NCBI GenBank assembly: GCA_046292465.1
Contig: JBKBRB010000005.1
Location: 22,536-86,535, forward strand
From: Chloroherpetonaceae bacterium
GTDB taxonomy: Bacteria > Bacteroidota > Chlorobiia > Chlorobiales > Thermochlorobacteraceae
Length of the DNA: 64,000 nt
Direction of reading: 5' to 3'
Shown here: positions 12,831 through 32,014 of the stretch, one piece after another
Layout: each line of letters starts with the position of its first letter
Position numbering within the stretch: the first letter of the stretch is position 1
Translations under genes and position numbers: made by a program
Notes under the pieces: generated by a model
Told to the model about the DNA's origin: nothing
Seen by the model: only the letters and a program-made list of their open reading frames with translations
Database searches by the model: none

Positions 12831-15800
12831 TTATTTCACCAGCATCATTTTTCTTGTTTGCACGAAATCGCCGGCTTGCAAGCGATAGAAGTAGATGCCA
12901 CTTGCAAGGTTTGTCGCGTTGAACTGCACGGTGTATTCACCAGCGGCTTGGCGACCGTTGACGAGCGTTGCGACTTCGCGACCCAAAATATCATAGATTT
13001 TCAGGCTTACGTTGCCGGCATTAGCAATTGAATACCGAATCGTCGTTGTCGGGTTGAACGGATTCGGATAGTTTTGCGAAAGCGTATAGGACTTTGCCTT
13101 GTTGCTTGTCTTTTGCACACTTAACTGTTGAGCAAGCGGGTTGCGGATTGTTTTTGAAGCAATCGCAAATTGTCCGAACTCGTTGCCTGAAAGGTTAAAG
13201 GCTTTGAGATAATCGCCGTCGCGGTAGGTCGTCAGCGGTTTCCAAGGCGACGATGCATTCGGGCGATAGGCGATGTAGAGATTTTGCGGACGAACAATGC
13301 CTGTGAGCGCGCCGCAGTAAATTGAGATATCGAAGCGGGTTGATGCGCTTAATCCTGTTTGGTTGATTGTCCACACCCGACCAGGTATCACAAAGTGCTC
13401 GTTGCCATCGCCATCGTTAATGCGATAGACATTGTGAATGCCGACTGTATCATTGACCGAAAAGACCGGTTCAGGCGCAATCGTTCCAACAGAGGCACTA
13501 ATGCTTCCGTCTGTCGTTGAGCCGCGTTGGATTTCAATAAAGGCATTTGTATTTCCTAAGATGTAGGTGCCTTCGCCTGCTGCGCCTGATGCGACACTCG
13601 GAGTTGCCGATGTGCTTCTGCGGTTTGTTACAGGAATAGGATCATCGTTGGCAACAATTGAACGAATGAAGATATCGCCCACGAAACGCGGCGCAGAAGT
13701 TGTATAGACTGGAATGTAGTCGCCACCAACATTGTCTGGACCACGATTACCAACAACGCGTGCTTCACGGTCAGGGTCGTCGAAGTTGTGGCGATAGGTC
13801 ATGCCTGCAATTAAACCGGGATTGACTGTAATGTCCATATACTCGATTTGTGTGCTGTCGACCGTGTAAGCCGCATTTACACCGAATCCAAACACATTTC
13901 CGTAATCGAGTCCTCTGAAGTTGTTCGTAAAGTCGAAGATATACTCGTGATATTTTCCATCGGCAATGAGTGTAACCATGCGTTCGGGTTCGTTAGAGTA
14001 GCGGCGACCGCCGTTTGTTGCGCGACGTTGATAAAGCGTATCGCCATTTGGGAACACATAAGGCGGACGGGTTGCATCGGTCAGGATTACGCTGAGCGTC
14101 GGCGCAATATCGCGTTGGAATCGGTTGGTGTTTTCAGCATCGGTTTTGGCAATCACATGGAGCACTTTTGCGCGGCTCAAATTGACAGGCGTGGTGTCGG
14201 TTGCCGATGATTTGAAGTATTTGCGAATCGCGTCGCGTCCGCCACCGAGCGTATCAGGAAGCCCTCCCGGCAAATCAGTTCGTCCTTGCGGCAAGCCATT
14301 GATGCCGACTAAACCGCTTGTTCCGATTTTAAGCGCTGGTTGTCCTTCGTCTGTAACCCAGTTGAGCGTGTATCGGTCGCGCGTCGGCTCTCCGCCGAAA
14401 ATATCCAGAACGCTCCAACCATTAAGCAAGGTATCGCTGACGGAGAAGTCATCCAGCACAACACTTTGAGGCGCAGTATTTGCAGGTACGCCGATATTGT
14501 ATTTCAAACTCAAATACTGCTCGACTTGTGCAATTTCAGATGGCGATAAGACTCGGTTATAGACTAACACTTCGGCAATATCGTTTTGACCGTAGCCTGT
14601 GTTGTCAATCAGCGACCCGAGCCGTATACGCGATGTGTTTCCGATTCCCGTGAGCGTTGAGGTTAAAATTGCGAATTGATTTTCAGATAATGCAGGCGAA
14701 CCTGCTACACCGTTTGTTGAAAGGGTTGCTGTTCCAGAACCGCCGACCACATTAAACTGGCGTGTTCCGCCATTAGACATCGCATAATAGCCTGCCTCAT
14801 TGGAGAGCAATCCTTCGGGTGAACTTGGGTTGATGGTCGAACGACGATTTGCAGCGACCGCAAAAACGGTTGCATTGCCTGTAAGCGGCAAGGCTGTTGC
14901 CATCGTGTCGTTTACACCATCGAAGCGCATCACGACAAATCCTCTGCCTTGTGTGCCGTTATTGGCAATGGTTGGGCGTGCGTCGCCTGCCGAGCGCATG
15001 TGGTTGCGTGCTCCAGACGCATCGAGCCAAATGTTGGCTGGCTGACCGGTCAGTGTAACATTGCTTGATTCTAATTTGAGCCACAGTTCCAAGCCGTTTG
15101 ACGGAATGCCCGAAATCGGCGGTCGCACCAGTGGAATGTTATACTTGTTGCTCAAATAAAGCTCAATTTCATCGAGTTCAAGCTCGGAGAGCGTGCGTCC
15201 ATAAATGATGACTTCTGCAATGTCGTTTGACCCAGCACGAACCGAATCACGAAGCGCACCGAGGATGAGCGGTGAGCCGCTGCCAAGCGTGTTCGTAACT
15301 CCTTTCAATTCATACACCACAATCGCAAATTCGTCATATCCAAGTTCTCTCGATGTTTCTGACCCATTTTTTCGAATCCTTGGAGTACCGTTATTGCCAA
15401 TTCCACTCTCGCCGTGAATTCTGCGTCCGTCTTGCGACACATAACTGTTATAGGTTGAAAAGGCAAATCCCGTAGCTGGGTAGTCAGTTTTCGTGCCTAA
15501 CACCACATCGACAGTGTTTGGAGGCAACGGTGGATTTCCAGAACGCCTGTTAGCCAGAACGACAATAGCTGTTGCATCTGACTCCGTTGCCACATCCACC
15601 TTCATCAGCGGCTGGTCCTTCGTTGTCCCACCATTTCCAGTAAACCTGACCACAGGTTTGCCATTGATGCGATTTGTTACAAAGGTCGGGCGATATATGC
15701 CGGTTGAAGTCGCATTAGGCGTGTTATCGAAACCTGGCCAAGTCGACACCGAATCTCCATCGTTTAATCCCGTAATTCCATCGGCTTTTAGCCACACCAA

Positions 15801-16640
15801 TAAACCATCTTCACGAGGCGGTGGTGGCAGCACAAAGTTATACTTTTGAGCCAAATAATTCTCGACTTGAACCGTTTCATTCAAGTTCAAGATGCGGTCG
15901 TAAAGGAGAATTTCCGCAATATCGTGCCGACCTGAACGCATCGAGTCGCGCAATGCATTGATGACCAACGGGCTACCGCTTCCACCTGTGTTTTCAACAC
16001 CTGAAAGCTTAAAGGTCATAATCACAAACTCATTTTCTTCCAGTGTTGGTGCTGCATTACGATTCTTTTTGATGGTTGCTGTACCATTGTTGCCTAATGT
16101 TCCACCCTCAGCACGAATCTCGCGTCCATCTCGTGAGACGTAACTGTTGTAAGAAGAAATTCCAAATCCTGTTGTGGGATAGTCGTTCTTCGTTGCCATC
16201 AATACGTCGACAGTTTGATCCTGCAGTGGCGGCGTGCCTGGTCGCGTGTTCGCAAACACAGCAAATGCCGTTACATTCGAGCCTGTTGAAACACCTTGAA
16301 CAACCATCAAAGGCTGGTCTTTTGTCCAACTTCCATTTCCCAAAAAACGCACCACTTTTTTAGGCTGACCATTGATGTTGACCTGCATAAGCATTGGAAT
16401 ATGAACGCCTGATGACGCTGCTGATGGACCTACCACAGCGGGCCAACTTGCCACAGGCGTCCCGTCTGAACCTGTGAGTGTATCGGCTTTCAGCCAGAGT
16501 TGAAGCCCATTGGTTGGAACTTGTGCAAGCAGAGATTGGGCAAAACACAGCAGGAAGGCAAGCGCAGTAAGCGTTCCAAGTGTTTTTTGTTTCAAGGGTG
16601 AAACCGACTTGGACGCACGAAGAAGCGTAGCGTTTGTCAT
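12831..16640 (-). CDS. T9SS type A CTD protein with three LamG/concanavalin-like repeats and unassigned domains
   Basis: Signal peptide; three repeats of GLxxWLKxD...DIAEVxxYxRxL...YLxxKY; C-terminal [12 protein letters not shown]...GIYFYRL...RKMMLVK. Confidence 0.85.
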
Positions 16641-16787: not shown

Positions 16788-17681
16788 TTAGCATGCGGTC
16801 AGCATTGCCGCACCGAAGACGCCCGCACTATCACCAAGCAAAGGTTTTACAATTTTTGTCTCGAGTGTATGATTAAAGACATATCGCTTTGTTGCTTCGA
16901 CGCCGTCGGTGTAAAGCAGGTCGATGTTGCCCACGCCGCCGCCCAACACAATCACATCGGGGTCTAAAATGTTGATGACGGTGGCAATGGCTTTTCCAAA
17001 ATTTTCGGTTAGGCGACGCACAGTTGCCGTAGCGTGTTCATCTTCGGCGCGCAAATGCCGCTCGACAATGTCTTTTAGTTTTCTTGTTTGACCGCTTTGT
17101 TTTCGGTAGAAGCGCTCGAGCCAAACGCCTGACAAAACCGTTTCAACACAGCCGCGCTTTCCGCAATAACATTGTTCGCCGTTTTCTTCGAGCATGTTGT
17201 GCCCCCATTCGCCTGCAATGCCTTGCTTGCCGTTAAGCACTTTTCCATTGACGACGATTCCGCCGCCGACACCTGTTCCCATAATCACACCGAAAACGAC
17301 CGACGCACCTTTTCCTGCTCCCAGCGACGCTTCCGCTAAGGCAAAGCAGTTTGCGTCGTTTGCAATTTCAATGGGCAGTCCTAAACTTTCTTCTAAGTCG
17401 CGTTTGAAGGGTTTTCCGTTTAGGCAAACGGTATTGCTGTTTTTGAGCGTCTGTGTGGAGGGTTCGAGCGTGCCGGGTGTTCCGATTCCGATTGTCGTTG
17501 GTTGGCTTCCAACTTCGTTTGTAACCTCGCCAATCAGTCGTTTGATTTGCGCGAGAATATGCGCGTAGCCTTTCTTTGATTCCGTCGGCATGCGTTTTCG
17601 CGCCAGCGTGTGCGTGCTTGTTGGATTTTCCAAAACTGCACATTCAATTTTTGTTCCGCCTAAATCAATTCCCCAAAGCAT
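16788..17681 (-). CDS. ROK-family sugar kinase (Mak/fructo-mannokinase-like)
   Basis: GIDLGGTKIE, NDANCFALAE, GTGVGGG, GEWGH and CYCGKRGCVE motifs. Confidence 0.92.
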   Translation of the reverse strand: MLWGIDLGGTKIECAVLENPTSTHTLARKRMPTESKKGYAHILAQIKRLIGEVTNEVGSQPTTIGIGTPGTLEPSTQTLKNSNTVCLNGKPFKRDLEESLGLPIEIANDANCFALAEASLGAGKGASVVFGVIMGTGVGGGIVVNGKVLNGKQGIAGEWGHNMLEENGEQCYCGKRGCVETVLSGVWLERFYRKQSGQTRKLKDIVERHLRAEDEHATATVRRLTENFGKAIATVINILDPDVIVLGGGVGNIDLLYTDGVEATKRYVFNHTLETKIVKPLLGDSAGVFGAAMLTAC

Positions 17682-17684: not shown

Positions 17685-18992
17685 TCAAGCCTGTTCGATT
17701 TTTCCGTGCACGGAGCCTTTGAAGCCGTAATAAACAATGTAGAGATAGCAAATCGCTGGAAGCAAGAACGCGCTTTGCAAACCTGACGAATCCGCGATTG
17801 CGCCCATCGCGACGGGCAAAAGCGCGCCGCCAACAATCGACATAATCAAGATGCTCGAGCCTGCATTGGTGAGCTTTCCGAGACCGTCGATGCCGAGCGT
17901 GAAAATGGTTGGGAACATAATCGAGTTGAACAGTCCGATGGAAAGCACCGTCCACATTGCGAATGCGCCTGATGAAAAGGTTGCTGTTAATGCAAGCAGT
18001 GCCGCCACACCTGCAAAGATGCCGAGCAAAACCCCCGCCCGAATTTTTTGCAAAAGTGCCGAGCCGATGAACCGACCAACCATTGCTCCGCCCCAATAGT
18101 AAGAGACATAGTTTGCTGCCTCGGCTTCCTTCAAACCTTGAATCTCGGACAAGCCGATGAAGTTGATAAGAAAACTTCCGATGGAAACTTCTGCGCCGAC
18201 ATACACAAAAATTCCAACTGCACCAAGCGCGAGATGCGGCACTTTAAGCGCCTCACCAAATGCACTTTCCTTTTCCACATCTTTTTCAGACTCGCCCTCA
18301 ACGGTTTCAATTTTGGGAAGATTAAAGAGCGCAATCACGCCCGCAAGTGCAAAGAGCGCGAGCGCAAGTCCGATGTAAGGCAGTTGCACCGACGCTGCCT
18401 CTGCAAGTTTGTAAGCATAAAGTTCTTCAGGCGAAAGCGTTTTGAGTTCTTCTGCGGTTTTTGCTGCCGAGTTCAAAATGAGCAACCCGCCGAAATACGG
18501 CGCCACCGTTGTGCCAAGCGAATTGAACGCTTGTGCAAGATTCAATCGGCTTGATGCGGTTTCAGGCTTGCCGAGCACGGACACATATGGATTTGCTGCT
18601 ACTTGCAGAATCGTAATGCCTGACGCAAGGATAAACAATGCGCCTAAAAAGAGCGGATACGCTAAGGTTGCCGCCGCCGGAAAAAAGAGCAACGCCCCTA
18701 TGCCCGCTGTGCATAGCCCGACCACGATTCCGCGCTTATAGCCAACCCACGCAATCACTTTTCCCGCAGGTAGCGACATCAGGAAATACGCCGAAAAAAA
18801 TGTGAATTGAATAAGCGCCGATTGCACATAGTTCAGGTCAAACACGGCTTTGAGGTGTGGAATTAAAATATCGTTCAAGCATGTGAGAAATCCCCACATA
18901 AAGAAAAGCCCTGTTACGACGATGAACGCCGGCGTGTAGTTCTTTTCAGAACTTGCTGTCGTTGCACTTTCAGGTGTTGCGAGATTTGCCAT
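17685..18992 (-). CDS. MFS glucose/galactose (FucP/GluP family) permease
   Basis: LFFMWGF, LIPHLK, QVAANPY, RLNLAQAFN and YVGAEV motifs. Confidence 0.92.
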   Translation of the reverse strand: MANLATPESATTASSEKNYTPAFIVVTGLFFMWGFLTCLNDILIPHLKAVFDLNYVQSALIQFTFFSAYFLMSLPAGKVIAWVGYKRGIVVGLCTAGIGALLFFPAAATLAYPLFLGALFILASGITILQVAANPYVSVLGKPETASSRLNLAQAFNSLGTTVAPYFGGLLILNSAAKTAEELKTLSPEELYAYKLAEAASVQLPYIGLALALFALAGVIALFNLPKIETVEGESEKDVEKESAFGEALKVPHLALGAVGIFVYVGAEVSIGSFLINFIGLSEIQGLKEAEAANYVSYYWGGAMVGRFIGSALLQKIRAGVLLGIFAGVAALLALTATFSSGAFAMWTVLSIGLFNSIMFPTIFTLGIDGLGKLTNAGSSILIMSIVGGALLPVAMGAIADSSGLQSAFLLPAICYLYIVYYGFKGSVHGKIEQA

Positions 18993-19097: not shown

Positions 19098-20120
19098 TTA
19101 GAAAAGAAGCGAGAGCGAAAGCCACTGCGGTGCGTTCAAGCGTCCGTAGGATTGGTAAGTGTAATCTAACCGGAAGACGAGATAGCCGAGATTATATTTC
19201 AAGCCTGCACCGAGCGTGAAGCCGGCTTCTGCAAATTCGACGAAGAGTTGGTTATATCCTGCGCGAAGGAAGAGCATATCGCGCCAGCCGTATTCCATTC
19301 CAACATTTGCATGTGGCTGCATGTCGTTCGGATTGACAGCATCGAGCGCAAGGGTGAGTCGGTTGCTTGCGTCTTCGAGCACTTCGGTTGCAATGCCGAC
19401 CCTGAACATCAGCGGCAAGTTCCATGCATCGGTTGAAAGTTCAGCGGGAATGCCGTTGTTGTCTCCATTTAAGCCTGTGCCTGTTGAAGCCGTAATGAGC
19501 AAGGCGTTCCCGCGCATGCGCATTGTGCCGCCGAAGTTGTGCATCGTCGCCGCCAATCGGAATCGTTTTGAGACTTCGAACAAAACGCCTAAATCTATGG
19601 CAACCGTTTGTGCCGACGATTGATAGAGCGACTGTGAGATAAGTTTTGCAGTAATTCCGACCGAGAAGCGGTCTGTAAGAGGACGTGCGTAAGAGAGATT
19701 GAACGAGAGGTCAGAGGTTGAGAAAAATTCGCCTGTGCCGTCGGGGTCTCTTTCGGTGGTGCGTTCGATATCGCCAGAGGTCAGCAAGGTTACTGAGCCG
19801 CCGAATGTGCCACCATCGCCGAAGTTTGCGGTTGCGCCTGCCCAAGCAATGCGTGTATCGACGAGCCAGTTGGAGTGAATGAACGCTGTTTGCACGCGCT
19901 CGTTTCGCGCAATTGCGGCAGGATTCCAATAGAGCATGGAGACGTCGTTTTTCATTGCCGTAAATGCGCCGCCCATTGCCACGGCACGCGCGCCAATCCC
20001 AATGCCGAGAAATTGCGCTCCGGTTGTGCCGACTTTAGACTGCGCAAATGCGCTTTGGCACATCTCCAACAAGAGCACTAAAAGAACCCTTGAGTAAAGT
20101 TTTCTCATTGTCCGTGTCAT
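19098..20120 (-). CDS. PorV/PorQ-family outer-membrane beta-barrel
   Basis: Signal peptide, then FLGIGIGARAVAMGGA...YWNPA, typical of FadL/PorV-like barrels. Alternating beta-strand pattern; C-terminal Phe. Confidence 0.8.
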   Translation of the reverse strand: MTRTMRKLYSRVLLVLLLEMCQSAFAQSKVGTTGAQFLGIGIGARAVAMGGAFTAMKNDVSMLYWNPAAIARNERVQTAFIHSNWLVDTRIAWAGATANFGDGGTFGGSVTLLTSGDIERTTERDPDGTGEFFSTSDLSFNLSYARPLTDRFSVGITAKLISQSLYQSSAQTVAIDLGVLFEVSKRFRLAATMHNFGGTMRMRGNALLITASTGTGLNGDNNGIPAELSTDAWNLPLMFRVGIATEVLEDASNRLTLALDAVNPNDMQPHANVGMEYGWRDMLFLRAGYNQLFVEFAEAGFTLGAGLKYNLGYLVFRLDYTYQSYGRLNAPQWLSLSLLF

Positions 20121-23100
20121 TTAATCAAGACGAATTTTCCTGTTTTTGTGCCGATGCCTGGTGCATCTAAGTGATAGAGATATAATCCGTAAGCCACATC
20201 GAGCCGCTCACGTGAGCGCAAATCCCAAGTTACATCGCCCTCGTTCGAGCCATCTTGTGTCAGGGTTTGGACTAAATCGCCACGAATGGTGTAGATGCGA
20301 ATCGTTGAGCCTTTGGGCACATGCGTAAAGCGAATGACTCTCTCACCGCGTCCGCGCGTTACGCCCAGGGGCAAGGGTTGCTCGTATTGGCTTCGTGCGA
20401 TGTAAGGATTTGGCACAACCTTGACTCGGTCGAGCGCATTTTTTGCGCGGTCCTTATCGACGAATACGGCACGGGTTTTAAATTGAAAACTATCGCCTGT
20501 TCGGAAAGGCTTGTTGAAACGCACCACGAACTTATCGCCCACACGAGGCACGATGCGATTCGGTCCTAAGCGCGGATTGAAGGCAAATGTCCAAGTGAAG
20601 ACTGAATCGGCAAGGACCTGACTCGGTCCATATGGACGCGGGTTTTTGTAGAATGGCAATCCAATTTCAATGGGGCCTGAGTTTTGCGTTGCAACCGTGT
20701 CGAATACATTCGTTGAGCGTTTGGTGAGAAAGAATCGTACCGTATCGCCTGTGCTTAAATTGCGAATGATGAAGTTTGTCGGTCGCCCGATGAAACTTTG
20801 TCCAATCGTTGTTGGCAAGCCTGATGTTCTGATGTAGCGCACGGTGTCGCTTCGCCATGTGCCGAAGGGCACGATTTCAATTTCGTAGTCGTCCGGTCGC
20901 AAGACGGTTGCAAACACACCGAGAGGATTAACGAAGTAGTTGCGTCCTGCGGTGTCAGTGGCTTGCACGAAAGCGTCATAGCCGTTGATGTCTTCGCGTG
21001 TCCATTTTGTCTCTGCTCGGTTGAGTTCGCCTCGGATGCGGTTTCGAATCGTCAGGTATATGCCGTTAAAAATTTGGTCGTCGGCAATGTAGAGTTGGCG
21101 GTCGCGCGTGGCATAAGAACTTTGTTCGTTGAGCGGTCGGCGATTGCGTTTAATGACTGTGTCGGGCGAATTAGGATTGGTTCTATCAATGACAGAGAAA
21201 AATGATGTGGCGGCTAATTGCTCTTCGAAATCATCGTCGTCAATTAAGCCGTTGCCGTTGTTGTCTAATCCATCTGTGGCGGTGTCGAAGAATTTCAGCA
21301 CATATGTTTTATCCTGAACGGTATCAGGGTCGACGATGGTGTATTGTACTGTTCCGTTTCCAACGATGTTGCCAATTGGTTGAAGTGCGCCGCCCTCTGA
21401 CGGAATCGTGAATCCGGCGACCTTTGGTCGTGGCACGACGGCTACGACATTCGTTCCCAAAACGAAATTGCCTTGTCCGTCGGGTCTTGCGCTTGGCGTG
21501 TTTTCAGCGGGATAAAGGCTCAAGGCAGTATCGCCACGCGTGTAAGCCAACACGGCGTAGAAGTATAGCCGCCCGTTGACGACGTTGGAGTCCGTAAAGG
21601 TGTGTTGCAATCCAGAGTTGTTGCCTAAGTAATAGGCAATGCCGCGCGACTGTTGCAACAGTTCGCGTGTCGTCAGTGGAAAGTTTCCGAAGACATCGTT
21701 GTCTAAATCAAACTGTACTAATGCTTTGAACTGTTGAGCCTCTTCGCCGCGCGAGCCTGTAATGAGCAGTGCGTCTGCAAAGTTTGGGTCAGTGGCTTTG
21801 ATGATTTTATAGCCCTCGAAATTTTTGACGCGCGGGTCGTCGGTGCCAACAGGCAGGTTCAATCGGCGTCGGATAAATTCATCACGATAATCTTCGGCGG
21901 CGGCATCCCAATAAAGCGTTACGCGGCGGTCATCCGTGTAATAGCCAAGCTTTGGTGGTGTCGGCGGACGGGCGAAGTTGTAGTTCGCATCGTAAATTGC
22001 CTGCACAATATCTTTTGTTTGAACGATTGATTGCGCGTCATTACCGAAGAGCAAGGCAATCGAGAGCCGCTCTGTTTGTCCTGACGCCAGCGGAAAGTAG
22101 CCAGTGCTGTAAAGGTAATCTTGGTCAATCGTTTGATTGAGGTCAGCAATGATGTCGTAGGTTCCAGGCTGCGCCAATTGCGGAATCAAGTCGACGGTTT
22201 GCGGACTTGCAATTGGCAATCCTTCGTTCGGGCGAATTGCAAATCCTGTCAATCCAATTTGGTCAGATTCTTTGACATCGACGGCATCGATGAAGCCGTC
22301 GCCGTTGTTGTCGAAGCCATCATCGCGCCGTTCATCAATCATCGGATAAATTGTGCGATTGATTTCCAGCGGGTCGTAAATGCCACTTCCTGCGGGAATG
22401 CCGGTTGGAAAGCGTTGCGCAAGTTGAATGTAATTGACGTAGGCAAGCGCCGGTTGTTCTCTTGGAATGACGATGCGTTGGATGAGGTCGTATTCAATGC
22501 GGCGGCGCCTGACATGCTGATTGTAGTTTTCATCGATGATACCGTTGAGATTATCATCTAAAAGGTTGTTATCAATTTCTTTGAGCACAGTTCCTGAGGC
22601 ACTCAATCGGTAAGGAATGCCGAGCGAGACGACGGTTGTATCGACATTCGGCATTCTCACGACACGCCGCACATATTTGAGGATTCGGCGGTTGTTGACG
22701 AGCGTGTCGCGCTGTTCAATCAAGACCAGTAGGTTTCCGGGGACAATAGTTCGGCGAAATGCTGTATCGCCTGCGACGATGCTGTAATCGTAATCACCTG
22801 TGCCGGGCAGTTTGCTGAAAATTGAGGGTTGTTCAGTTGGATTATCCGTTTTTTCCCAGTCACCGTCGTTATCAATTCCGTCAAAGGGGTTGCCGGGGCT
22901 TTCTAAAAATGCTGCGCCTGCAAATCCGGGCGGGTAAAAGTTTCGATTCCAACTGCCTGCAACTGGTGGGTTATTGACGGTGCTTTTGAAGCTATAAGTA
23001 ATTGAGTTGGCTTGGTCGAAGGCAGAAACGCCGTCAATACCGCCCGTGCCGCCGCCGCCGATGTCGGTTCCGACGACCGAGCCGAAGAAAACTTTATCGT

Positions 23101-24004
23101 AATCGTAAATCGAGTTGTTTTTCACCTCATAAAGCCAGAAGATGACGTCTTGGGCAAGGAAGTTTGAGAATTGCAAGCCGCGCACTCTTAAGTCTAATCC
23201 GAAGCCGTAGCGAGTCGGCTGTGCGGGGTTTGGCTGGAAGTTATATCGCGTGAAATACTGTTTGTCTTTTCCGTCGGTAGCGGCAAAGTAGCTTTCTTGG
23301 TCGGCGTTCGTGACGCCCGGTCCGAAATAGCCGTTCCAGACGGCGCGCCCTGTGGCAGGGTCAGTAGGATAGTTTTCATTGCCAGGCCACGATGCAGGCC
23401 ATGAATTTGGAATATGACTCATTGCCACGCTGTTTTGCAGTGGATTCCAAAATCCTTCGTAGGGGGTGATGCCCCAGAATTCGCCTGTCCCCGACTTTCC
23501 GCCAGGGGCTTCGCCGAAGCGCACCGAAGGATGGCTGGTTACATACCACTCTTGATAGCGCAACGCCATTGCCAACGTATCGCCTTTGAAAAATCTGCCG
23601 ACCGTGTCTGCGAACGCGACGCCTACTGTGCGACGGTCCCGCAACCGAAATCCTCTGACGCTGTCTGGACCAACGGTGAAGTTAATGAGCGTGTCGCGCA
23701 CACCTTGAATGCCGATGATAATGTTGATGTCGGGCAAGTAGGTATTTTCTTCAACCGGCCATGCACTTCTAGGCAACTGGGTAAAGCCTGCTGGCTGACC
23801 AATAAAGCCTGTGTTCGCAAAGGCTGTTTTCACTCGATTTCCGTTGTGTAGCCCAACCCGCGTGAATCGTATATCGTAGTTCGTGTTAATTGGTCCTGCT
23901 TCTTGTTGCGCATAAAGCCATTTGGTTGGAACAATCACGGCAGTGCCAACAAGCAGAGCGCAGAGAAGCAAATGACGGTAAATTTTTGTGCGTGCGTGTT
24001 GCAT
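20117..24004 (-). CDS. Large secreted hypothetical protein with a variant T9SS-like CTD
   Basis: Signal peptide; repeated DGxDNxGxGxxD motifs; C-terminal VKVVPNPY...IRIYTIRGDLV...GLYLY...GKFVLIK. Stop overlaps the PorV start. Confidence 0.8.
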   Translation of the reverse strand: MQHARTKIYRHLLLCALLVGTAVIVPTKWLYAQQEAGPINTNYDIRFTRVGLHNGNRVKTAFANTGFIGQPAGFTQLPRSAWPVEENTYLPDINIIIGIQGVRDTLINFTVGPDSVRGFRLRDRRTVGVAFADTVGRFFKGDTLAMALRYQEWYVTSHPSVRFGEAPGGKSGTGEFWGITPYEGFWNPLQNSVAMSHIPNSWPASWPGNENYPTDPATGRAVWNGYFGPGVTNADQESYFAATDGKDKQYFTRYNFQPNPAQPTRYGFGLDLRVRGLQFSNFLAQDVIFWLYEVKNNSIYDYDKVFFGSVVGTDIGGGGTGGIDGVSAFDQANSITYSFKSTVNNPPVAGSWNRNFYPPGFAGAAFLESPGNPFDGIDNDGDWEKTDNPTEQPSIFSKLPGTGDYDYSIVAGDTAFRRTIVPGNLLVLIEQRDTLVNNRRILKYVRRVVRMPNVDTTVVSLGIPYRLSASGTVLKEIDNNLLDDNLNGIIDENYNQHVRRRRIEYDLIQRIVIPREQPALAYVNYIQLAQRFPTGIPAGSGIYDPLEINRTIYPMIDERRDDGFDNNGDGFIDAVDVKESDQIGLTGFAIRPNEGLPIASPQTVDLIPQLAQPGTYDIIADLNQTIDQDYLYSTGYFPLASGQTERLSIALLFGNDAQSIVQTKDIVQAIYDANYNFARPPTPPKLGYYTDDRRVTLYWDAAAEDYRDEFIRRRLNLPVGTDDPRVKNFEGYKIIKATDPNFADALLITGSRGEEAQQFKALVQFDLDNDVFGNFPLTTRELLQQSRGIAYYLGNNSGLQHTFTDSNVVNGRLYFYAVLAYTRGDTALSLYPAENTPSARPDGQGNFVLGTNVVAVVPRPKVAGFTIPSEGGALQPIGNIVGNGTVQYTIVDPDTVQDKTYVLKFFDTATDGLDNNGNGLIDDDDFEEQLAATSFFSVIDRTNPNSPDTVIKRNRRPLNEQSSYATRDRQLYIADDQIFNGIYLTIRNRIRGELNRAETKWTREDINGYDAFVQATDTAGRNYFVNPLGVFATVLRPDDYEIEIVPFGTWRSDTVRYIRTSGLPTTIGQSFIGRPTNFIIRNLSTGDTVRFFLTKRSTNVFDTVATQNSGPIEIGLPFYKNPRPYGPSQVLADSVFTWTFAFNPRLGPNRIVPRVGDKFVVRFNKPFRTGDSFQFKTRAVFVDKDRAKNALDRVKVVPNPYIARSQYEQPLPLGVTRGRGERVIRFTHVPKGSTIRIYTIRGDLVQTLTQDGSNEGDVTWDLRSRERLDVAYGLYLYHLDAPGIGTKTGKFVLIK

Positions 24005-24027
24005 CGTCTAGTTCTCGTCAATTTGAT

Positions 24028-27006
24028 TTAGAAGTTAATTGACATTCCCAGCATGATTCGGCGCGGCTCTGAAAAGAAGTCAGGACGCAAGAAAAAGTCG
24101 GGCAATGAATTAAACGCTTGATTTTGTTCCGATACCGTATAGCGATACAGTTCATAGGTGGCGCGCCCAGTTGTCGAGTAGACAATGATTTCGTTCGCCG
24201 TATCAAACAAGTTGAAAATTTGTGCAAATACTGCCAGATTGGTTTCTCCAATTTTGAAGTTGCGTGTCGCACGCACATCGACTGAAAAGGTCTGAGGTTT
24301 GACGCCACCATTCTGAAATAGCCTTGCTAATCCTTGCGTTGGTGGTTGCGGCACAGTTGTCGGAGAGTAAGGAAAACCAGAGCCATAACGACCGATAACA
24401 GAGACATTCCAATCACGGTCATCGTAAAGGACTTCGGCGTTGAGCGTATGCGTCTGGTCCCAATCCAATCGTATGAGTTGTGTTTCAGGCTCGTTGCCGC
24501 TTGCAATCGACGCAATTGCCGTTCGTGGGTCGGGTGAGTTGCCTTGTGCCACTTGGAGCGTGTAGTTGATGTTGAAACTAATGCTTTGCGAAAGCCGCTT
24601 GCTCAGCGTTGCCACAATCCCACGCACGAAAGCATAGTCGGTATTGTCAAAAACGAAGTATTGTCCGCCTGTAATCAATTGTCGAGCAAATGCCGAGCCT
24701 GCAAGGTCGCGAATATCACGATAGTAGGCGCTCATCGTTAGCCCAATCGTTTCGCCGATTTGTTGCTGAATTCCGATTTCACCAGTAATAGTGCGTTGCG
24801 GACGAATGTCTGGATTGCCAAACGGCGAGTTAATGCGACTGGTAATGTCGGTCTCTCGGAACTTGAAGAGCGCATTTTCATAAAGCAGGTAAAAGTTTGG
24901 AACTTGAAAAAACTGCCCATAAGAAAAGTAAAACATACCGCGCTCCGTGATAGGGAACGAGACACCGATTCTGGGACTAAACGCAAACTTTGGCGTAGCA
25001 TTTTTCCGACGATTACGGAATCCGTTTCGCGCTGCAAACACGCTGTCGCTATCAATTTTGAAAAAGAGGCTCGGGTCTAACGGGTCAGTTGGCACTTGGT
25101 CGCGTGAGTTAAAGTAATCGAAGCGAATGCCGAGATTGATGATGAAGTTATCGAATTCAAGCTTGTCTTGAATGTAGGCAGCAAACTCAATTGGGTTGCG
25201 CGTGTAGCGTTCGTGTCCAAATTCAGTTTCAGCATCAGGAATGTAGGGCTGAAAACCATCGCGAATTTCACCAGTTCGGTCGCGAATCTCAATAAACTCA
25301 AAATCCAACCGATGATACTTGAAATCAACGCCTGTTTTGACAAGGTTATGTTTATTGAGCTGTGTGGTTAGGTCGAGTCGAAATTGATTCGTGAGCGTTG
25401 TTCGGTCGACACGCGAATTTTTCGTGCCTCCATGAACGAAATTCACACCTCGTCTTACTGCACCAGGCACACCTAAGTCTTGATAACGCGCATCGAAGGG
25501 GTCTTCAAAGGCGTAATTCTTGAATCCTGTTCGGAACAGCGAATATCGTCCGTCGAGGAAGCTGTTGGAGTTTAGCGTGTAGGTTATGCCCAAAATGTTG
25601 GTGAACCCGCTTCGAAAATTTTGCAGTTCACCATCTGGGTTAAGACTCCATGCGTGGTCGTAGCCTCTGAAATTTTCATCTTCGTAATTGAAACTGTAAA
25701 ACGCCTTGAAGGTGCTAGACGGACGAAAGGTGAGTTTTCCTTGAAGCGAGTAGCGTTCATATTCGTTAAGTGGCACAGGGGCGTTATCGCCACTTCCAAA
25801 ATTTTCATAGCGGTTAAAGCGCTGCTCCAATCCGAATTGATTACTCACGCTGAACGGAATAAAGATGCGCGTTCCGTTTTGTCGGTCGATAATGGCGCGT
25901 CCGTTTTCGTCAGTTGCAATGAAGACGGGATTTCTGCGTCCATCAACGATTGAGGTCGGAATTCCTTGTTCGTTGATAAATGAGCTAATTGCATTAGGGT
26001 CGTCTGGTGTTGTGAGGCGAAATTTTCCGGCAATCGCAGGCGCATTGTAAGGATTTAGCGGATTGCCTTGTTGAAGCACATCGTCCGTTCGGAATTGACG
26101 GCGTCCAAAGAGATAGCCTTCGTTTCGGAAATATCGTCCCGCCAAATAAAACGACAATTTATCTTTCAAAAACGGAAACGGACCGCTGATTGAGGCTTGC
26201 ATGTTCGGCGTTGCAAAGGGGGAGAAGTTGTTCATGTTGCGATAAAGGTCGCGTCGCCCTGTAAGATAATCACCGCCGTAAAGTTGAACTTGCCCTGAAT
26301 AAGTCTCGCCACCTTCTTTGGTAACGATGTTCACAATGCCCGACATGGCTTGCCCATATTCAGCATTGAACGCACCTGTAATCACCTGCACTTCTTGAAT
26401 CGACTGCGGGTCAATGAAGGTCGAGCCGCCTCTGCCGGCGTTGCCGTCGAAGACGTCCGTTACCGTTACGCCGTCAACTAAGTAACCAACTTCGCCAAAC
26501 CTGCCGCCACGAAAACTTCCGCCCACAATCCCCGACTGCAAGCGAATCACTTGGCTGACATCTTCAACAGGCAGTTTCTGAATTTGCTCCCCGGCAACTA
26601 CCGCCGACGAAAACGTTTGGTCTTTGATGACAATCGGTCGCTCGGCACTAACCACCACTTCTTGCGCCTGCACCGATTGCGACGAGAGTTCAACATCGAC
26701 GCGCGTGGTTAGGTCGACACGAATGGTAATTTTTTCAACTGTTTTGGATTGATAGCCAACATAAGTTACGCGGAGCGAATACTGCCCAGGAGGAATGTTC
26801 AGAATCGTATACTCGCCATCGAAGTTGGTTTTCGCGCCAAGTTTCGTGCCTTGAAGAACAACTGTCGCACCGATGAGCGGCTCACCTGTTTGTGCGTCTT
26901 TGACAACACCTGTGAGTTTTCCTGTTGTTCCGAAGTATGCAGAAGTGCTTGCGCTACTTGCAAGTAATAAGAAAAGCAAGGCAATGTGTTTCATTCTCAT
27001 TCGCAA
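24028..27006 (-). CDS. TonB-dependent receptor with N-terminal carboxypeptidase-regulatory-like domain (not SusC-type)
   Basis: GVVKDAQTGEPLIGATV...YVGY domain; plug YLVDG...GAFNAEYG; C-terminal EPRRIMLGMSINF. Confidence 0.92.
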   Translation of the reverse strand: MRMRMKHIALLFLLLASSASTSAYFGTTGKLTGVVKDAQTGEPLIGATVVLQGTKLGAKTNFDGEYTILNIPPGQYSLRVTYVGYQSKTVEKITIRVDLTTRVDVELSSQSVQAQEVVVSAERPIVIKDQTFSSAVVAGEQIQKLPVEDVSQVIRLQSGIVGGSFRGGRFGEVGYLVDGVTVTDVFDGNAGRGGSTFIDPQSIQEVQVITGAFNAEYGQAMSGIVNIVTKEGGETYSGQVQLYGGDYLTGRRDLYRNMNNFSPFATPNMQASISGPFPFLKDKLSFYLAGRYFRNEGYLFGRRQFRTDDVLQQGNPLNPYNAPAIAGKFRLTTPDDPNAISSFINEQGIPTSIVDGRRNPVFIATDENGRAIIDRQNGTRIFIPFSVSNQFGLEQRFNRYENFGSGDNAPVPLNEYERYSLQGKLTFRPSSTFKAFYSFNYEDENFRGYDHAWSLNPDGELQNFRSGFTNILGITYTLNSNSFLDGRYSLFRTGFKNYAFEDPFDARYQDLGVPGAVRRGVNFVHGGTKNSRVDRTTLTNQFRLDLTTQLNKHNLVKTGVDFKYHRLDFEFIEIRDRTGEIRDGFQPYIPDAETEFGHERYTRNPIEFAAYIQDKLEFDNFIINLGIRFDYFNSRDQVPTDPLDPSLFFKIDSDSVFAARNGFRNRRKNATPKFAFSPRIGVSFPITERGMFYFSYGQFFQVPNFYLLYENALFKFRETDITSRINSPFGNPDIRPQRTITGEIGIQQQIGETIGLTMSAYYRDIRDLAGSAFARQLITGGQYFVFDNTDYAFVRGIVATLSKRLSQSISFNINYTLQVAQGNSPDPRTAIASIASGNEPETQLIRLDWDQTHTLNAEVLYDDRDWNVSVIGRYGSGFPYSPTTVPQPPTQGLARLFQNGGVKPQTFSVDVRATRNFKIGETNLAVFAQIFNLFDTANEIIVYSTTGRATYELYRYTVSEQNQAFNSLPDFFLRPDFFSEPRRIMLGMSINF

Positions 27007-27146: not shown

Positions 27147-27932
27147 TTATGTCGCGTCGCTTTCCTGTTTCCAATAACTGCTCAAATCGCTTTCCAGCGT
27201 CAAGCCCTCGCCGATTAACACTGCATCAAAGCCCGCTTCTTCGATTTTGAGCAAATCGGCTTTGGTTTGAATCCCACTTTCAGAGACCACCGTCACTTCT
27301 TTCGGAATTTCTTTTTTCACCCGAAGCGACGTTTCAAGCGAGACTGAAAAGTCATGCAAATTGCGATTATTAACGCCGATGATGGTTGCGTCATATTTCA
27401 TTGCTCGTTCCAACTCCCACTCGTCGTGCACTTCGGTTAGCACATGCAAACTGATTTCCTTTGCTAATTGCAGGAAGGATTGCAGTCGAGCATTATCCAG
27501 CGCGGCGACAATCAAGAGCATGGCATCTGCACCAACAAGGCGCGTCTCCAAAATTTGCGTTTCATTGATGATGAAGTCTTTGCGTAAGACCGGCAGTTCA
27601 AAGCGTGAGCGAACTTGTTCGAGATACTCGATTTTGCCTTGAAAAAACTTTTCATCAGTCAGCACCGAAAACGCGGACGCGCCGAGATTGAGATACATTT
27701 CAGCGCGCTCAATCGGCTTGAAGTCTTGGACAATTACGCCGCGCGAGGGCGAAGCCTTTTTCAGTTCCGCAATCAAGCGTAGCGTTTCGTCTTCGCGCCG
27801 AATGGCTTTGGCAAAGTCGCGCGTTGGGTTCAAATACTTACGCTCCGCCTCAAAGGTTCTTGAAATGCCGCGCAGTTTCAGAGCGGCAACTTCGCTACGC
27901 TTTTCGTCCAAAATTTTATCGAGATAGGTCAT
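27147..27932 (-). CDS. trpC: Indole-3-glycerol phosphate synthase
   Basis: IAELKKASPS, SVLTDEKFF, LRKDFI, GVNNRNL and VSESGI motifs. Confidence 0.96.
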   Translation of the reverse strand: MTYLDKILDEKRSEVAALKLRGISRTFEAERKYLNPTRDFAKAIRREDETLRLIAELKKASPSRGVIVQDFKPIERAEMYLNLGASAFSVLTDEKFFQGKIEYLEQVRSRFELPVLRKDFIINETQILETRLVGADAMLLIVAALDNARLQSFLQLAKEISLHVLTEVHDEWELERAMKYDATIIGVNNRNLHDFSVSLETSLRVKKEIPKEVTVVSESGIQTKADLLKIEEAGFDAVLIGEGLTLESDLSSYWKQESDAT

Positions 27933-28654
27933 TTGAGTAGTGATTTCGGTAGGTCTTCAAATTTTTTGATGCGATAGAGGTTTGTCGCAATCGTTGGCAC
28001 ATCTTTGAATGGAACGGTCATACACATCTCGCCATCAGCCATGCGTGCCAGTTCTCTGCCCGATAAATCGCCGGGCGAAAAAACAGGCTTTTGCGCTAAA
28101 TACGGATGCGGCACGACCAGCGCACAGAGCGAAAGTCCTGCAAACCCTTGCACCAACTCGCCTGATTCAAAACTATATGCATGACAAAGCCACTCGAGTT
28201 GGCGTGCGTTGCAAAAGAACATTACCACGTCAGGGTCTTCGACCTGCTCTAATCGTCCCATCACTGTTGCTTCAAATCGCTTTTCCTTTTTGAAACTAAA
28301 CGGCACGCTTTCTTGGCACTTTGTTGCCGATTCACGCGAGTAATAAATTTTGCCTTCGCCGACCAGCATGTTCCAGCCATGCTCGACGAGTTTCGGCGGC
28401 AGGTCTTTTTGTCCCATGCCTGTGTAGCTTGTTCCGCCTGCACAAATGTGGTCGTCCGGAACGGTATAAAACGGTGTGGCATAGTTTGACACTTCTTTCC
28501 ACATGCCGCAATAAATGCCTTTGCCTTGATAGCGCACGGCATAAGGCGGCACATCGGCAAGTGTTGGGCAAAATTTCAGCGCAACGAAATCGCGCTCAAT
28601 GCCTGTAAAGGCGCGAATTTTTTCTGCCCACTCCTGTTGCTCTGTAAGGCTCAT
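27929..28654 (-). CDS. DUF169-family protein
   Basis: Cys-rich pattern YCG...HICAGG...LCA and P-x-x-S-x-G-D-x-x-x-R near the C-terminus. ATG 28654 overlaps the upstream stop. Confidence 0.7.
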   Translation of the reverse strand: MSLTEQQEWAEKIRAFTGIERDFVALKFCPTLADVPPYAVRYQGKGIYCGMWKEVSNYATPFYTVPDDHICAGGTSYTGMGQKDLPPKLVEHGWNMLVGEGKIYYSRESATKCQESVPFSFKKEKRFEATVMGRLEQVEDPDVVMFFCNARQLEWLCHAYSFESGELVQGFAGLSLCALVVPHPYLAQKPVFSPGDLSGRELARMADGEMCMTVPFKDVPTIATNLYRIKKFEDLPKSLLK

Positions 28655-31600
28655 TTGAGGAACATCAATTTTTTGGTTGAAGACCAATCCGCCGCTTTCA
28701 AGCGATAAAAATACATGCCTGACGAAAAGCCGGACATGTTGAGCACATATTCATGAAAGCCTGCGTCCTGTTTCGCTTCCACGAGCGTTGCCACTTTTCT
28801 GCCCAACACATCAAAGAGTTCCAAAGTTACGCGACTTGCAACGGGCAACTGATATCGAATGACTGTTGTCGGATTAAATGGGTTCGGATAGTTTTGCTCT
28901 AACGCGAACGCCTGCGGTTTTTGAGCCAATCGCTCCCGTGTTGAACTTAATCCTACTCCGCCTGAGAGGCACCAGATTCTTCCATCGCGCGAAGTTACAA
29001 CAAAGTCCACCGTGTTATCGCCTGTAATATCGTCGACGATACTGATTTGCTCTGCTGCGGTGCTGTTCGAGCCAATGCCTGTGTTGAAGACGAAGCGTTG
29101 CTGTCCTGTTGGCGCATCATAGACCAGCACGCGATTGTCGAGCGTTGCAAATGCGACGGCGGAAGTTGCGCCATCGATTGAGCGATTGCCTTTGCGAAGT
29201 TCTGCCGCGCCGAGCGTAATGCTTCCGAGCGAATTTTGCCATAGCGTTGCACCGGTCGCGCCGTTGAGCACAAACGCACTGTATCCGCCTGCGGCAATGA
29301 CTTCGGGAATGTTGTCGTTTGTGAAGTCAGCCGTGAGTTTGACATCGGTGTAAAAGCCGTTGCCTGTTGCGCCTGTCCACAAGAGTTGCCCTGTTTGCGC
29401 GCTTAGTGCTTTGATAGAAACACTTGCGAGCGTTGATGTGCCTTCGGCAACAATGACGGTTTGGTTGTTTGGTGCGGTTTGAAATTTTGCCATTTCCCAA
29501 ACAGGACGATTGTTGTTGTAACTCCATCGCACCACGCCCGTGCTATCGAATCCGTAGATGAAGTTATCAGCGTCGCTTTGCGAGTTTGTTGCTACCACAC
29601 CGCCGAGCCATGTGGCAATGACGCCGTCGACAAATCGGTTTAAGGGCAGTTGCCATAGCACTTGTCCCGTGCGTCCGTTGAGGCAATAGAGGGAACGTCT
29701 TCCTTGCGTGCCACTTGAATTGGTTGCCGACGACGTGGCTAAAATATCCACCGTGCCATCGCCGTTGAAGTCTCGGCTTGCATCAATACCGTTGATGTCG
29801 CCTAAGGCGAAATTGACGCTATCGAAGAGTTCCCACTGCCAGATTAGCCGTCCAGTTTTGCCTGAAATTGCATAGACTTCTTCGTTGCCGCCGCCACAAC
29901 CGATAACGACATCGGCAACGCCATCGCCGTTCAAATCAGGTGCGACTTGCAATGCACCAACGCGGTCAACCGAGCCTGAATTGTTGTTGTTTGTGCCTGT
30001 ATTAAATCGCCAAAAAATGTCCATACTTCCTGACGCATTGCCGTTGATGCACAGCGTCCAATAGTTTTCAGTGGCTAACACAATATCGTCGATGCCGTCT
30101 CCATTCACATCGGGAATTGGTTTCATTGATACGGGCGAATAATCTTGAAACGAAGTTGCAGGATTGACGGGCACTGTGCCTTGCCAGAGCACGGCTCCAA
30201 GTTCGCGATTTACCGAAATGCCTTCGCCGCGAAGCGCAAGCCGCTGAACCGCGCCATTTACAGCATCTGACAACACATAGAGCGTATCGCTCACCACGCC
30301 ACTTGTGGCCGGTGCTTTGAACCACACTCGAACTTCGCTTGATGCTTGTGGCGCAATTCGAATGGGAATGGCTTGTAGCGAAAGGCTATCGACATAAAAA
30401 TTTTCACTCTTTGTCGTTAAGCCTATAATTTCCAATGTATCTGTTCCGCGATTTTCAACCGTGAGCATGTAGCTTGAGCGTGCGTTGTGCCGCCGTTGTC
30501 CAAAGTCGTATTGTGTTGCCCCTAAGTGAAGATACTTGCCTTGATAGACGCCCTTGCCACGCAGGGTTAGGCGTTTTTGCGGCTCAGTTGGGTCGTTGGA
30601 GTTAATGAAAATATCGGCTTCTTGATTGCCAAAATTTTGAGGCTCAAATGACGCGAAGTAGGTTTTCGTTGCACCTACGGCGAGGGTATCGATGCCGACG
30701 CTGATTCCGAAATTGTGATTAGCGGTCGTCGTAATGCCGTTCAAACGAAGCGGTGCGGAACCGATGTTGCTAATTGTAAAGGCGATCGAATCGCGCGAAT
30801 TGATTGCAACATTTCCGAAGTTAATTGTCGAGGTCGAGAGTGCAATTTTCGGCGAACCACTGCCATCGATTCGGAAGCGATAAAGCACGCGAAATCGGTT
30901 GATATTATTGCCCACGCGGAACGCCACCGACCACAGGTGATTGCCGTCCCAGTATAAGCCTCGCGGGTCTTGGTCGTTATCAGGGTCCGGCATGGGGAAA
31001 CTGAACAGTGTATCTTTGGTTGGCGAGTTCAGATTGACAGCATACACGCGTTCAGGTTGATTGTTGTGAAAATTATCGCCGACGTAGAAGAGCGTATCGC
31101 CTTTGACGGCAATGCCTTGCACTTGTCCGTTGTGGAGCGGGACAGTGTCGAGCAGTGTATTGTTGAGATAATCCCATTTGTAAGCATATGCAAACGGATA
31201 GCTTCCGCCGCCACTTGACGGAATGTTGTCAGGTTCATAGACCGCAAACCACAAGTGTCCGTTTCGGTCTAAGGCAATGTCGCCGATTCCGCCTGCACGC
31301 ATTGGCGGACCGTTGTTATCGCCAATGACAAACGGAAACTGAATCGAGTCGACAACTTGCCCTTGCCGAGTGAAGCGGTAAAGCCTTGTGCCTGAAAAGC
31401 GATAGTCTTGTGCCACCAAGAAATGCGTGCCGTCGAATTCCAATCCGTGATTGAAGTTGTAGAAATTTGGTAAATCGATTCTGCCGAGCGTGTCGCCGCG
31501 CACTGTAACTTTGATAATGTCGCCGAAGCTATCGTCTCCCAAAAAGAGCGTATCGCCAATGCGTGTAATGCCCCAAATGAAATTCCAGTTGTTAGCATTT

Positions 31601-31948: not shown

Positions 31949-32014
31949 TTTTTTATTTGCAATCACTTTTGCAGTAACGATTTTTCTTCTAACCATCTAA
32001 ACGATACAGTGAAA

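Follow-up and report, generated by a model that had tools for sequence, protein, structure and literature searches.

Organization of the locus

The sequence analysed here, referred to as the window, is a 64,000-nucleotide stretch of contig JBKBRB010000005.1 (positions 22,536 to 86,535, forward strand) from the Chloroherpetonaceae bacterium assembly GCA_046292465.1. Three genes lie head to tail on its minus strand and encode, in this order, a TonB-dependent transporter, a large secreted protein of an uncharacterised family and an outer-membrane barrel of the PorV/PorQ family; these genes are referred to below as the triad. The transporter gene (24028..27006) codes for 992 aa from a TTG codon, with a signal peptide, a CarboxypepD_reg-like extension, a plug and a large barrel, the large-protein gene (20117..24004) for 1295 aa and the barrel gene (19098..20120) for 340 aa. 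The transporter stop and the large-protein ATG are separated by 23 bp (taa atcaaattgacgagaactagacg ATG), and the large-protein and barrel genes share a 4 bp ATGA overlap (TTG ATT AAA TGA at the end of the former, ATG ACA CGG at the start of the latter); both junctions were read directly. The lengths of the transporter and the large protein, the spacing and the overlap, together with a variant C-terminal domain (CTD) on the large protein, had been described in an initial annotation of the window made from the sequence alone, and all were recovered at the minus-strand positions given here. Its statement that the locus lacks SusD also held, no SusD family being matched by any of the 19 proteins that were scanned around the triad (window positions 2635 to 36323). 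No second copy of the triad lies inside the window. Gene order is identical on a metagenome contig of a close relative (locus L081), in which the large protein is 86 % identical. The source is an uncultured member of the Chlorobia, whose SecD shares 95 % identity with that of a 'Chlorobiales bacterium' MAG, about 72 % with those of Thermochlorobacter and Chloroherpetonaceae and 64 % with that of Chloroherpeton thalassium.

TonB-dependent transporters are recognized by a plug, a 22-strand barrel and a TonB box. The transporter of the window matched PF13715 and PF13620 (CarboxypepD_reg), PF07715 (Plug, 38.3 bits) and PF00593 (TonB_dep_Rec, 89.6 bits), the last two above their cut-offs. By Pfam, the CarboxypepD_reg-like extension covers residues 31–119 and the plug residues 128–223 (gene on the minus strand), with a TonB-box-like QEVVVSA just ahead of the plug. 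The SusC/RagA model TIGR04056 was failed (71.9 bits, cut-off 368.25), with residues 30–234 alone aligning, and no SusC chain occurred among the solved-structure matches at E≤1e-5. Translation of the transporter more likely begins two codons past the listed TTG, from the ATG at 27000, because the close relative in L081 was called at 990 aa.

The large protein

Members of the large-protein family are 1,150–1,400 residues long. At least 1296 homologues were found in a collection clustered at 90 %, each unnamed or annotated as 'hypothetical', and 547 of the representatives clustered at 50 % identity are related to the N-terminal domain. Pfam and NCBIfam contain no above-threshold family for the large protein and the PDB no solved relative by sequence or fold, and the SusD models of Pfam and NCBIfam gave no match to this gene, which directly follows that of the transporter. 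Its sole NCBIfam match, between the tail and the C-terminus of PorZ, is weak (18.8 bits). A sub-threshold match to spumavirus Gag was rejected as a chance hit. Searches of the literature turned up no account of either the triad or the large-protein family. A family of this size (547 clusters at 50 % identity) without a model, a name or a structure is a target for structural and genetic work.

The protein begins with a Sec signal peptide (residues 1–32, 23909..24004, minus strand), with predicted cleavage after LYA and before QQ. The reading of this protein as a lipoprotein partner is ruled out by its Cys pattern and by the missing lipobox: the sole Cys is at position 15, where the family consensus has none, and the consensus has 'AQ' and no Cys at the cleavage site, so the large protein is not a lipoprotein. 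The mature part, all on the minus strand, opens with a conserved β-rich N-terminal domain (residues 33–677, 21974..23908) carrying three Asp/Asn-rich, calcium-loop-like motifs (DGIDNDGD at 375, DDNLNGIID at 483 and DGFDNNGDGFID at 562). It continues with a fibronectin type III (FnIII)-like domain (residues about 678–830, 21515..21973), for which Foldseek matches to FnIII tandems were obtained together with a weak profile match to the Fn3-like protein 3mpc, and whose consensus reads DFEGYKIYK...NGRTYYYAVVAYD. A variable β-sandwich region follows (residues 831–1183, 20456..21514), with a fourth Asp/Asn loop at 911, and is joined to the tail by a short helix. Mean pairwise identity within the family is 0.28 for residues 901–1183, 0.50 for the N-terminal domain and 0.56 for the tail, the most conserved part, and is 0.50–0.56 outside the variable region. 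The region 831–1183, the least conserved, is a candidate for a substrate-specific surface.

An AlphaFold2 model based on an alignment of 78 sequences was almost all β for residues 33–1194, with a predicted local distance difference test score (pLDDT) of 85 and a predicted template modelling (TM) score (pTM) of 0.76, and residues 33–680 gave a pLDDT of 88.7 and a pTM of 0.90. Searches of the PDB by Foldseek with the 1162-residue model and the 648-residue N-terminal model returned no true fold relative, the matches being FnIII pieces or noise-level β-sandwich parts of glycosidases (TM≤0.24). The best match of the N-terminal domain was to the β-sandwich part of dextran dextrinase (E 9e-4, TM 0.21). 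As modelled, the large protein has a fold with no solved counterpart, and the predicted β-rich architecture is nothing like SusD.

The C-terminal tail and the barrel

The large protein ends in ...VVPNPYIARSQ...KFVLIK, a variant type IX secretion system (T9SS) sorting domain (residues 1196–1295, 20120..20419, minus strand) in which about 13 extra residues (PLP...GRGER) follow the PNPY strand. The tail of the window protein matched neither of the CTD models of Pfam and NCBIfam (PF18962 and TIGR04183), nor PF13585 (CHU_C) at E≤0.1. When 23 tails of the family were compared by hhalign with the type-A tails of neighbouring genes, the two profiles aligned over 78 columns with a probability of 96.7 % (E 4e-10), from the PNP strand to the final K and with the 13-residue insertion (PLP...GRGER) as the single interruption. 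CHU_C was matched weakly by 19 of the 23 family tails (best E 1.5e-6) and the type-A model by one (E 0.09), and the type-A tails of the neighbours themselves cross-matched CHU_C in 17 of 43 cases. By these profile comparisons, the tail is best classed as a diverged member of the T9SS sorting-domain superfamily that is neither clean type A nor clean type B. Triad loci contain two kinds of T9SS tail, a canonical one on binding proteins and enzymes and the variant one on the large protein only, together with its own barrel.

The barrel of the window passed the PorV/PorQ family model NF033709 (212.5 bits, cut-off 90) and scored below the equivalog cut-offs for PorQ (NF033711, 120.2 against 220), PorV (NF033710, 86.8 against 250) and PorV2 (86.8 against 325). 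Among 58 triad barrels, 57 matched NF033709, with PorQ as the next-best model by best E-value; the best PorV-equivalog E-value was 1.9e-28, and eight barrels had weak matches to BamG. The closest solved relative of the window barrel is PorV of Flavobacterium johnsoniae in the SprA–PorV complex (6h3i_F, E 3.7e-12), and no PorP/SprF model was found among its Pfam and NCBIfam matches at E≤0.01. Judged by NCBIfam scores, the barrel is nearer PorQ than PorV, and it is not of the PorP/SprF type. The initial annotation had called the barrel PorV-like, which stands at the level of the shared family model but not at the level of the nearest member, and had compared the pair with type-B CTD cargo and SprB–SprF; most tails do match CHU_C weakly, but the tail is not clean type B.

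Two further observations concern the barrel family. The window barrel also matched UPF0164 (29.3 bits, above the family cut-off), as did many of its homologues in precomputed Pfam annotation; this hints that the family belongs to a FadL/PorV-like barrel superfamily, UPF0164 being presumably a group of uncharacterised Treponema proteins. In one Melioribacteraceae metagenome-assembled genome (MAG), the triad transporter is preceded, 1 kb upstream, by a second, more distant PorV-family gene (L014, 3353–4294), which scores 91 bits against the window barrel.

Conservation of the triad across lineages

Relatives of the large protein were located in a scan of one genome per species, which gave 168 loci, of which 80 were kept. 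The partner genes were sought by tblastn with the window proteins and counted where the contig reached far enough. All 75 loci testable for the transporter had it upstream of the large protein, and all 67 testable for the barrel had it downstream. In the reverse direction, all five barrels sampled down the homologue list directly followed a transporter and a large Pfam-less protein, and tblastn identified the large protein at each of these five loci as a family member. The co-occurrence elsewhere on which the initial annotation had made its reading depend is thereby supported, and the triad is a conserved module rather than a chance adjacency. It was found in at least nine lineages of the Fibrobacteres–Chlorobi–Bacteroidetes (FCB) group, comprising Ignavibacteria, Melioribacteraceae, Kryptonium, Calditrichota, Marinimicrobia, KSB1, Stahlbacteria, Rhodothermales and Chlorobia-like genomes, and additionally in MAGs labelled Bacteroidota.

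Gene order could be called in 58 loci and was transporter, large protein, barrel in 54 of them. Median intergenic gaps were about 20 bp between the transporter and large-protein genes and about 13 bp between the large-protein and barrel genes, with several stop/start overlaps. Three loci (L018, L062 and L077) had the order transporter, barrel, large protein, which indicates that coupling of the large-protein stop to the barrel start is common but not obligatory. In one locus (L032), the best barrel match lay in an upstream unit and a second barrel followed the large protein.

Several genomes carry more than one copy. One Chloroherpetonaceae contig contains two complete triads 400 kb apart, with identities to the window of 53 %, 51 % and 60 % in the three genes of one and 40 %, 36 % and 52 % in those of the other, so that the ranking is the same in each gene. 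In locus L078, a complete triad is followed by a tandem second transporter and large-protein gene. Since both triads of the Chloroherpetonaceae contig have their own barrel, the barrel is not a single generic PorV; with a tandem or partial second triad in two loci, it is the dedicated paralogue that had been proposed and not the sole porV.

Co-divergence of the triad proteins

Pairwise distance matrices of the three proteins were compared for 39 complete triads. Mantel correlations were high (r 0.79–0.91), and the nearest neighbour was the same locus for 20–24 of the 39 triads across the three proteins. Clustering of the large protein divided both Ignavibacteria and Marinimicrobia into two subfamilies each, and the Ignavibacteria split recurred in the transporter and the barrel, in line with the co-evolution on which the initial annotation had made its reading depend. 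This co-divergence is partly, but not entirely, shared phylogeny. The paralogous and tandem triads and the parallel splits indicate that whole triads duplicate and diverge together.

The large protein was then divided into regions for partial Mantel tests with 5000 permutations. The tail correlated with the barrel when the transporter was controlled (r 0.33, p 2e-4) and with the transporter when the barrel was controlled (r 0.33, p 2e-4). The other three regions correlated with the transporter given the barrel (N-terminal domain r 0.68, FnIII-like domain r 0.32, variable region r 0.51; all p≤4e-4) and not with the barrel given the transporter (all p≥0.18), leaving the tail as the sole region that tracks the barrel with the transporter controlled. 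This pattern is as expected for contact of the tail with the barrel and of the passenger domains with the transporter, and would fit the arrangement proposed in the initial annotation, in which the barrel exports or anchors the large protein and the large protein acts as lid or binding partner of the transporter. It is supporting evidence and not proof, because the tests are inflated by shared ancestry.

Association with glycan-utilization loci

The genes downstream of the triad in the window, all on the minus strand, are those of a glycan-utilization locus. Directly after the barrel lies an inner-membrane sugar transporter of the major facilitator superfamily (MFS; GluP/FucP type, 17685..18992, TIGR01272, 358.6 bits), which has the same position in L081 and L085, followed by a sugar kinase of the ROK family (16788..17681, PF00480, 252.8 bits) whose closest NCBIfam models, fructokinase and N-acetylglucosamine kinase, are both below cut-off. 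Next come a 1269-aa protein with a canonical type-A T9SS tail (12831..16640, PF18962 and TIGR04183), an α-mannosidase family enzyme of glycoside hydrolase (GH) family 92 (10423..12756, PF07971 with 442 bits, and PF17678) and a GH3 glycosidase of the β-glucosidase type (8144..10426, PF00933, PF01915 and PF14310). No domain beyond the tail and no solved relative could be recognized in the 1269-aa protein, and it is by the tail alone that it matches proteins of other loci. It stands in for the type-A-tailed binder or enzyme located behind the barrel at most related loci, and may be the substrate-specific binder or enzyme of a mannan/glucan-type locus.

In related loci, the gene after the barrel had a canonical type-A tail in 33 of 43 cases and a carbohydrate-binding module (CBM) of family CBM20 in 16 of 43; other genes in this position carried CBM48, a pullulanase X25 domain, CBM53, GH66, GH9, GH16 or malectin. 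The second gene downstream encoded GH13 (8 loci), GH66 (3) or GH3 (2), and the upstream flanks contained LacI regulators in 6 loci, GH13 in 6 and GH97 in 1. The paralogous triad in L085 is accompanied by an MFS permease, GH16, GH125 and galactose genes, the triad in L087 by GH29, GH31 and GH115, and that in L084 by an ATP-binding cassette (ABC) sugar importer. SusD was absent from the 25 commonest families listed per set among 131 flanking genes of related loci. The glycan-utilization setting without SusD described in the initial annotation is thus seen both in the window, with its MFS, ROK, GH92 and GH3 genes, and in the related loci, which are rich in carbohydrate-active enzymes (CAZymes). 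The varied CAZyme surroundings indicate that the triad is the invariant core of glycan-utilization loci of varied specificity.

A published locus may have the same layout. In Melioribacter roseus, genes Mros0761–0759 within Mros0764–0758 were called SusC, SusD and SusE of a 'sus operon' for starch in the 2013 genome paper and are flanked by GH13, GH31 and a CBM48 amylase (PMC3534657). These labels may be positional, on a layout like that of a starch-type triad; the Melioribacter triad found here, behind a CBM9 protein (L062), is a distinct locus.

In Ignavibacteria-like starch-type triads, two further genes recur beside the unit, one for a GDSL-lipase plus tetratricopeptide repeat (TPR) protein (about 610–640 aa) and one for a large peptidyl-prolyl isomerase (PPIase; Rotamase, about 610–650 aa); they were located in L082 (16138–18033 and 3509–5344), L086 (10584–14352) and L088 (11358–15253). 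PPIases also occurred among flanking genes in the surveys of related loci. A link of these PPIases to assembly of the triad complex is conceivable, because surface PPIases are parts of the dome of the β-barrel assembly machinery (BAM) of Bacteroidota.

Upstream of the triad in the window are trpC, a DUF169 gene (27929..28687, minus strand) and a second type-A-tailed protein of 1011 aa (28651..31686, minus strand), with a choice-of-anchor D/HYDIN-like Ig domain and an FG-GAP/PQQ β-propeller. The start of the DUF169 gene overlaps the 3′ end of the 1011-aa gene by 37 bases, and trpC is next; this order is kept in L081. So is a gene on the plus strand (31886..33076) that matches the deoxyhypusine synthase family (PF01916, E 3e-97) and adjoins a transaldolase gene, and whose product is probably a homospermidine-synthase-like enzyme. 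A scan of the locus for promoters and terminators was uninformative, with sites rarer than in shuffled sequence. The sole well-placed terminator-like site is a 13-pair hairpin (12792..12823, minus strand) between the stop of the 1269-aa gene and the GH92 gene.

Proposed function and alternative explanations

On balance, the evidence favours a reading in which the triad is one outer-membrane machine for glycan capture and import, with a surface partner that reaches its place through the T9SS and is retained there by a PorQ-like barrel. The triad probably does a job of the SusC/SusD type. We infer both the physical association of the three proteins and their function. The large protein would be exported by Sec and would then cross the outer membrane by the T9SS, which would recognize its diverged CTD. 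In the general PorV/PorU route, the tail is cleaved and the cargo is attached to lipopolysaccharide; by analogy with PorQ and PorZ in Porphyromonas gingivalis, the private, co-translated PorV/PorQ-family barrel would take the large protein in place of this route and would hold its uncleaved tail. The conserved N-terminal and FnIII parts would sit against the neighbouring transporter, with the large protein atop or beside it as the invariant component of a glycan-capture complex. The variable sandwich region and the neighbouring type-A-tailed CBM proteins and enzymes would bind glycan and give specificity. Oligosaccharides would pass the transporter and then, in this window, the MFS permease on the way to the ROK kinase, with trimming by the GH92 and GH3 enzymes. 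Import is the direction suggested by the gene content of the loci, which includes inner-membrane sugar permeases, kinases, LacI regulators and periplasmic-type glycosidases. A bolder version, in which a T9SS-delivered giant of unsolved fold is clamped by its private PorQ-like barrel and caps the transporter to form a SusD-independent glycan importer, is put forward tentatively.

Several points weigh against this proposal. Recognition of the window tail by the T9SS would follow from profile homology, because the tail fails the CTD models of both Pfam and NCBIfam. The Mantel and partial Mantel correlations, being inflated by shared phylogeny, do not prove contact. The absence of SusD applies to the loci scanned, and the reading of the barrel as one of several PorV-family proteins to the contigs examined. 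None of the structural matches, with TM≤0.24, points to a binding or lid role, and the large-protein family is known from sequences and models alone. High conservation of the N-terminal domain among loci predicted to act on different substrates speaks for a role in scaffolding or in docking to the transporter rather than in binding the glycan.

Of the other explanations, the one that survives best is that the large protein is mainly a new carbohydrate-active enzyme, delivered by the T9SS and then released or surface-bound, with a transporter that is merely co-regulated and no complex between the two. The many invariant Asp, Glu, Trp and Tyr residues of the N-terminal domain and the CAZyme-rich loci would suit an enzyme, and the weak fold matches are confined to β-sandwich parts of glycoside hydrolases and phosphorylases and of a mutarotase, but these matches are at noise level. 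An identity of 0.50 in the N-terminal domain across starch, dextran, mannan, β-glucan and fucose-type loci is unexpected for a substrate-specific enzyme. A released enzyme also needs no private barrel, yet one was found in every testable locus, and the divergence of the large protein tracks that of the transporter strongly when the barrel is controlled. This explanation is considered unlikely.

A less probable explanation is that the large protein and the barrel form a surface adhesin or a unit of a cell-surface layer, comparable with SprB–SprF and without a direct role in transport. The large protein is indeed a β-rich multi-domain protein with FnIII and calcium-loop-like motifs, and gliding adhesins do have co-encoded cognate barrels (PMC12618676, PMC9143113). 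An adhesin, however, would not account for a transporter upstream in 75 of 75 testable loci at gaps of about 20 bp, nor for passenger domains whose divergence follows that of the transporter instead of that of the barrel, and the Pfam and NCBIfam matches of the barrel include no PorP/SprF model.

It is very improbable that the transporter works outwards in the manner of Myxococcus Oar, exporting or assembling the large protein, so that the triad would be a secretion device. The CarboxypepD_reg N-terminus of the transporter and the occurrence of PF25183 (OMP_b-brl_4) in its relatives speak for this, in keeping with a likeness to Oar architecture that we assume here, but export of the large protein is already explained by its T9SS-type tail and PorV/PorQ-family partner, and the permeases, kinases, LacI regulators and periplasmic-type glycosidases of the loci point to import. 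Finally, that the adjacency is incidental and the barrel simply the general PorV of the genome, as the name 'PorV' given by the NCBI pipeline to at least one such barrel (P0410) would have it, can be dismissed, since strict two-way conservation and a contig with two triads, each with its own barrel, rule it out and the PorV-equivalog scores (87 against a cut-off of 250 in the window; best E 1.9e-28 among 58 barrels) speak against it.

Under the bolder version, the triad would be at least of the age of SusCD, given its spread over Ignavibacteria, Chlorobia, Rhodothermia, Kryptonia, Calditrichota, Marinimicrobia, KSB1 and Stahlbacteria, and the T9SS would be used to build nutrient-uptake complexes. 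If the triad is a machine for glycan capture and import, the pairing of the large protein with its barrel would be a third class of cargo-specific barrel pairing, beside PorZ–PorQ and type-B/PorP–SprF, and would link the T9SS directly to nutrient import. Genome surveys based on SusD are blind to loci without SusD. The triad occurs in mostly uncultured lineages that abound in sediments, hot springs, the deep ocean and wastewater; as an uptake core, it would make the glycan loci of these groups searchable and so help to trace what they contribute to carbon turnover.

Comparison with known systems

The SusC/SusD pair, known from the Sus system of Bacteroides thetaiotaomicron and from SusCD 'utilisome' complexes, is the accepted signature of glycan uptake in Bacteroidetes, by which genome surveys find utilization loci, and a polysaccharide utilization locus in the strict (PULDB) sense has an adjacent susC-like and susD-like pair. 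The locus in the window, in which no susD-like gene was found, falls outside this definition. As in SusCD, no more than about 20 bp separate the gene of a transporter with an N-terminal CarboxypepD_reg-like extension from that of a large extracellular partner behind it, the pair is a constant core around which CAZymes, CBM proteins, regulators and inner-membrane permeases vary, and several paralogous copies occur per genome. Unlike SusD, an α-helical, TPR-like lipoprotein of about 550 aa, the partner in the triad is a β-rich non-lipoprotein of 1,150–1,400 aa with a T9SS-type tail. The transporter, unlike SusC, fails the SusC/RagA model (72 against 368 bits), and the obligatory third gene, for a PorV/PorQ-family barrel, has no counterpart in SusCD. 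The triad would be functionally like SusCD plus surface glycan-binding proteins but is not SusCD by membership.

The tail and barrel find their best precedent in PorZ–PorQ rather than in SprB–SprF, because the tail is diverged and not clean type B and the barrel is nearer PorQ. In the T9SS attachment complex of Porphyromonas gingivalis, the atypical tail of PorZ stays uncleaved, and PorZ is anchored at the surface by PorQ without recourse to PorV or PorU (PMC10947112, PMC5562754). Cognate PorV-like barrels have been proposed to shield tails from cleavage (review, PMC10202324). The triad likewise pairs a PorV/PorQ-family barrel with one specific cargo that has an atypical CTD, retention of the tail being by analogy; the PorQ model is the next best for the triad barrels, and the weak NCBIfam match of the tail is to the C-terminus of PorZ. 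The barrel of the window, however, scores 120 bits with the PorQ equivalog, below the cut-off of 220, and its cargo is unrelated to PorZ outside the tail. Whereas PorZ–PorQ is a single-copy part of the secretion machine, the triad pair shows translational coupling, occurs in duplicate within genomes and is linked to a transporter.

For type-B cargo, such as SprB–SprF and Fjoh_1677 in F. johnsoniae and PG1035–PorP, a co-encoded, cargo-specific barrel is needed for both secretion and surface localization (PMC12618676, PMC9143113). The triad shares with these pairs the co-encoded cargo-specific barrel and, in most tails, a weak CHU_C match. It differs in a barrel of the PorV/PorQ family, in a tail that can be aligned with type-A tails over its full length but for one insertion, and in a cargo that is tied to nutrient import rather than to gliding. 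A further parallel is BamG of the Bacteroidota BAM complex, a 14-stranded FadL/PorV-like barrel that is the attachment platform for a large surface protein beside another big barrel (PMC12578637); unlike the large protein of the triad, its partner BamH is a lipoprotein held by its N-terminus, has no T9SS tail and serves in membrane-protein assembly. The triad thus joins glycan uptake of the transporter–partner kind with a cargo-specific T9SS barrel, around a new protein family.

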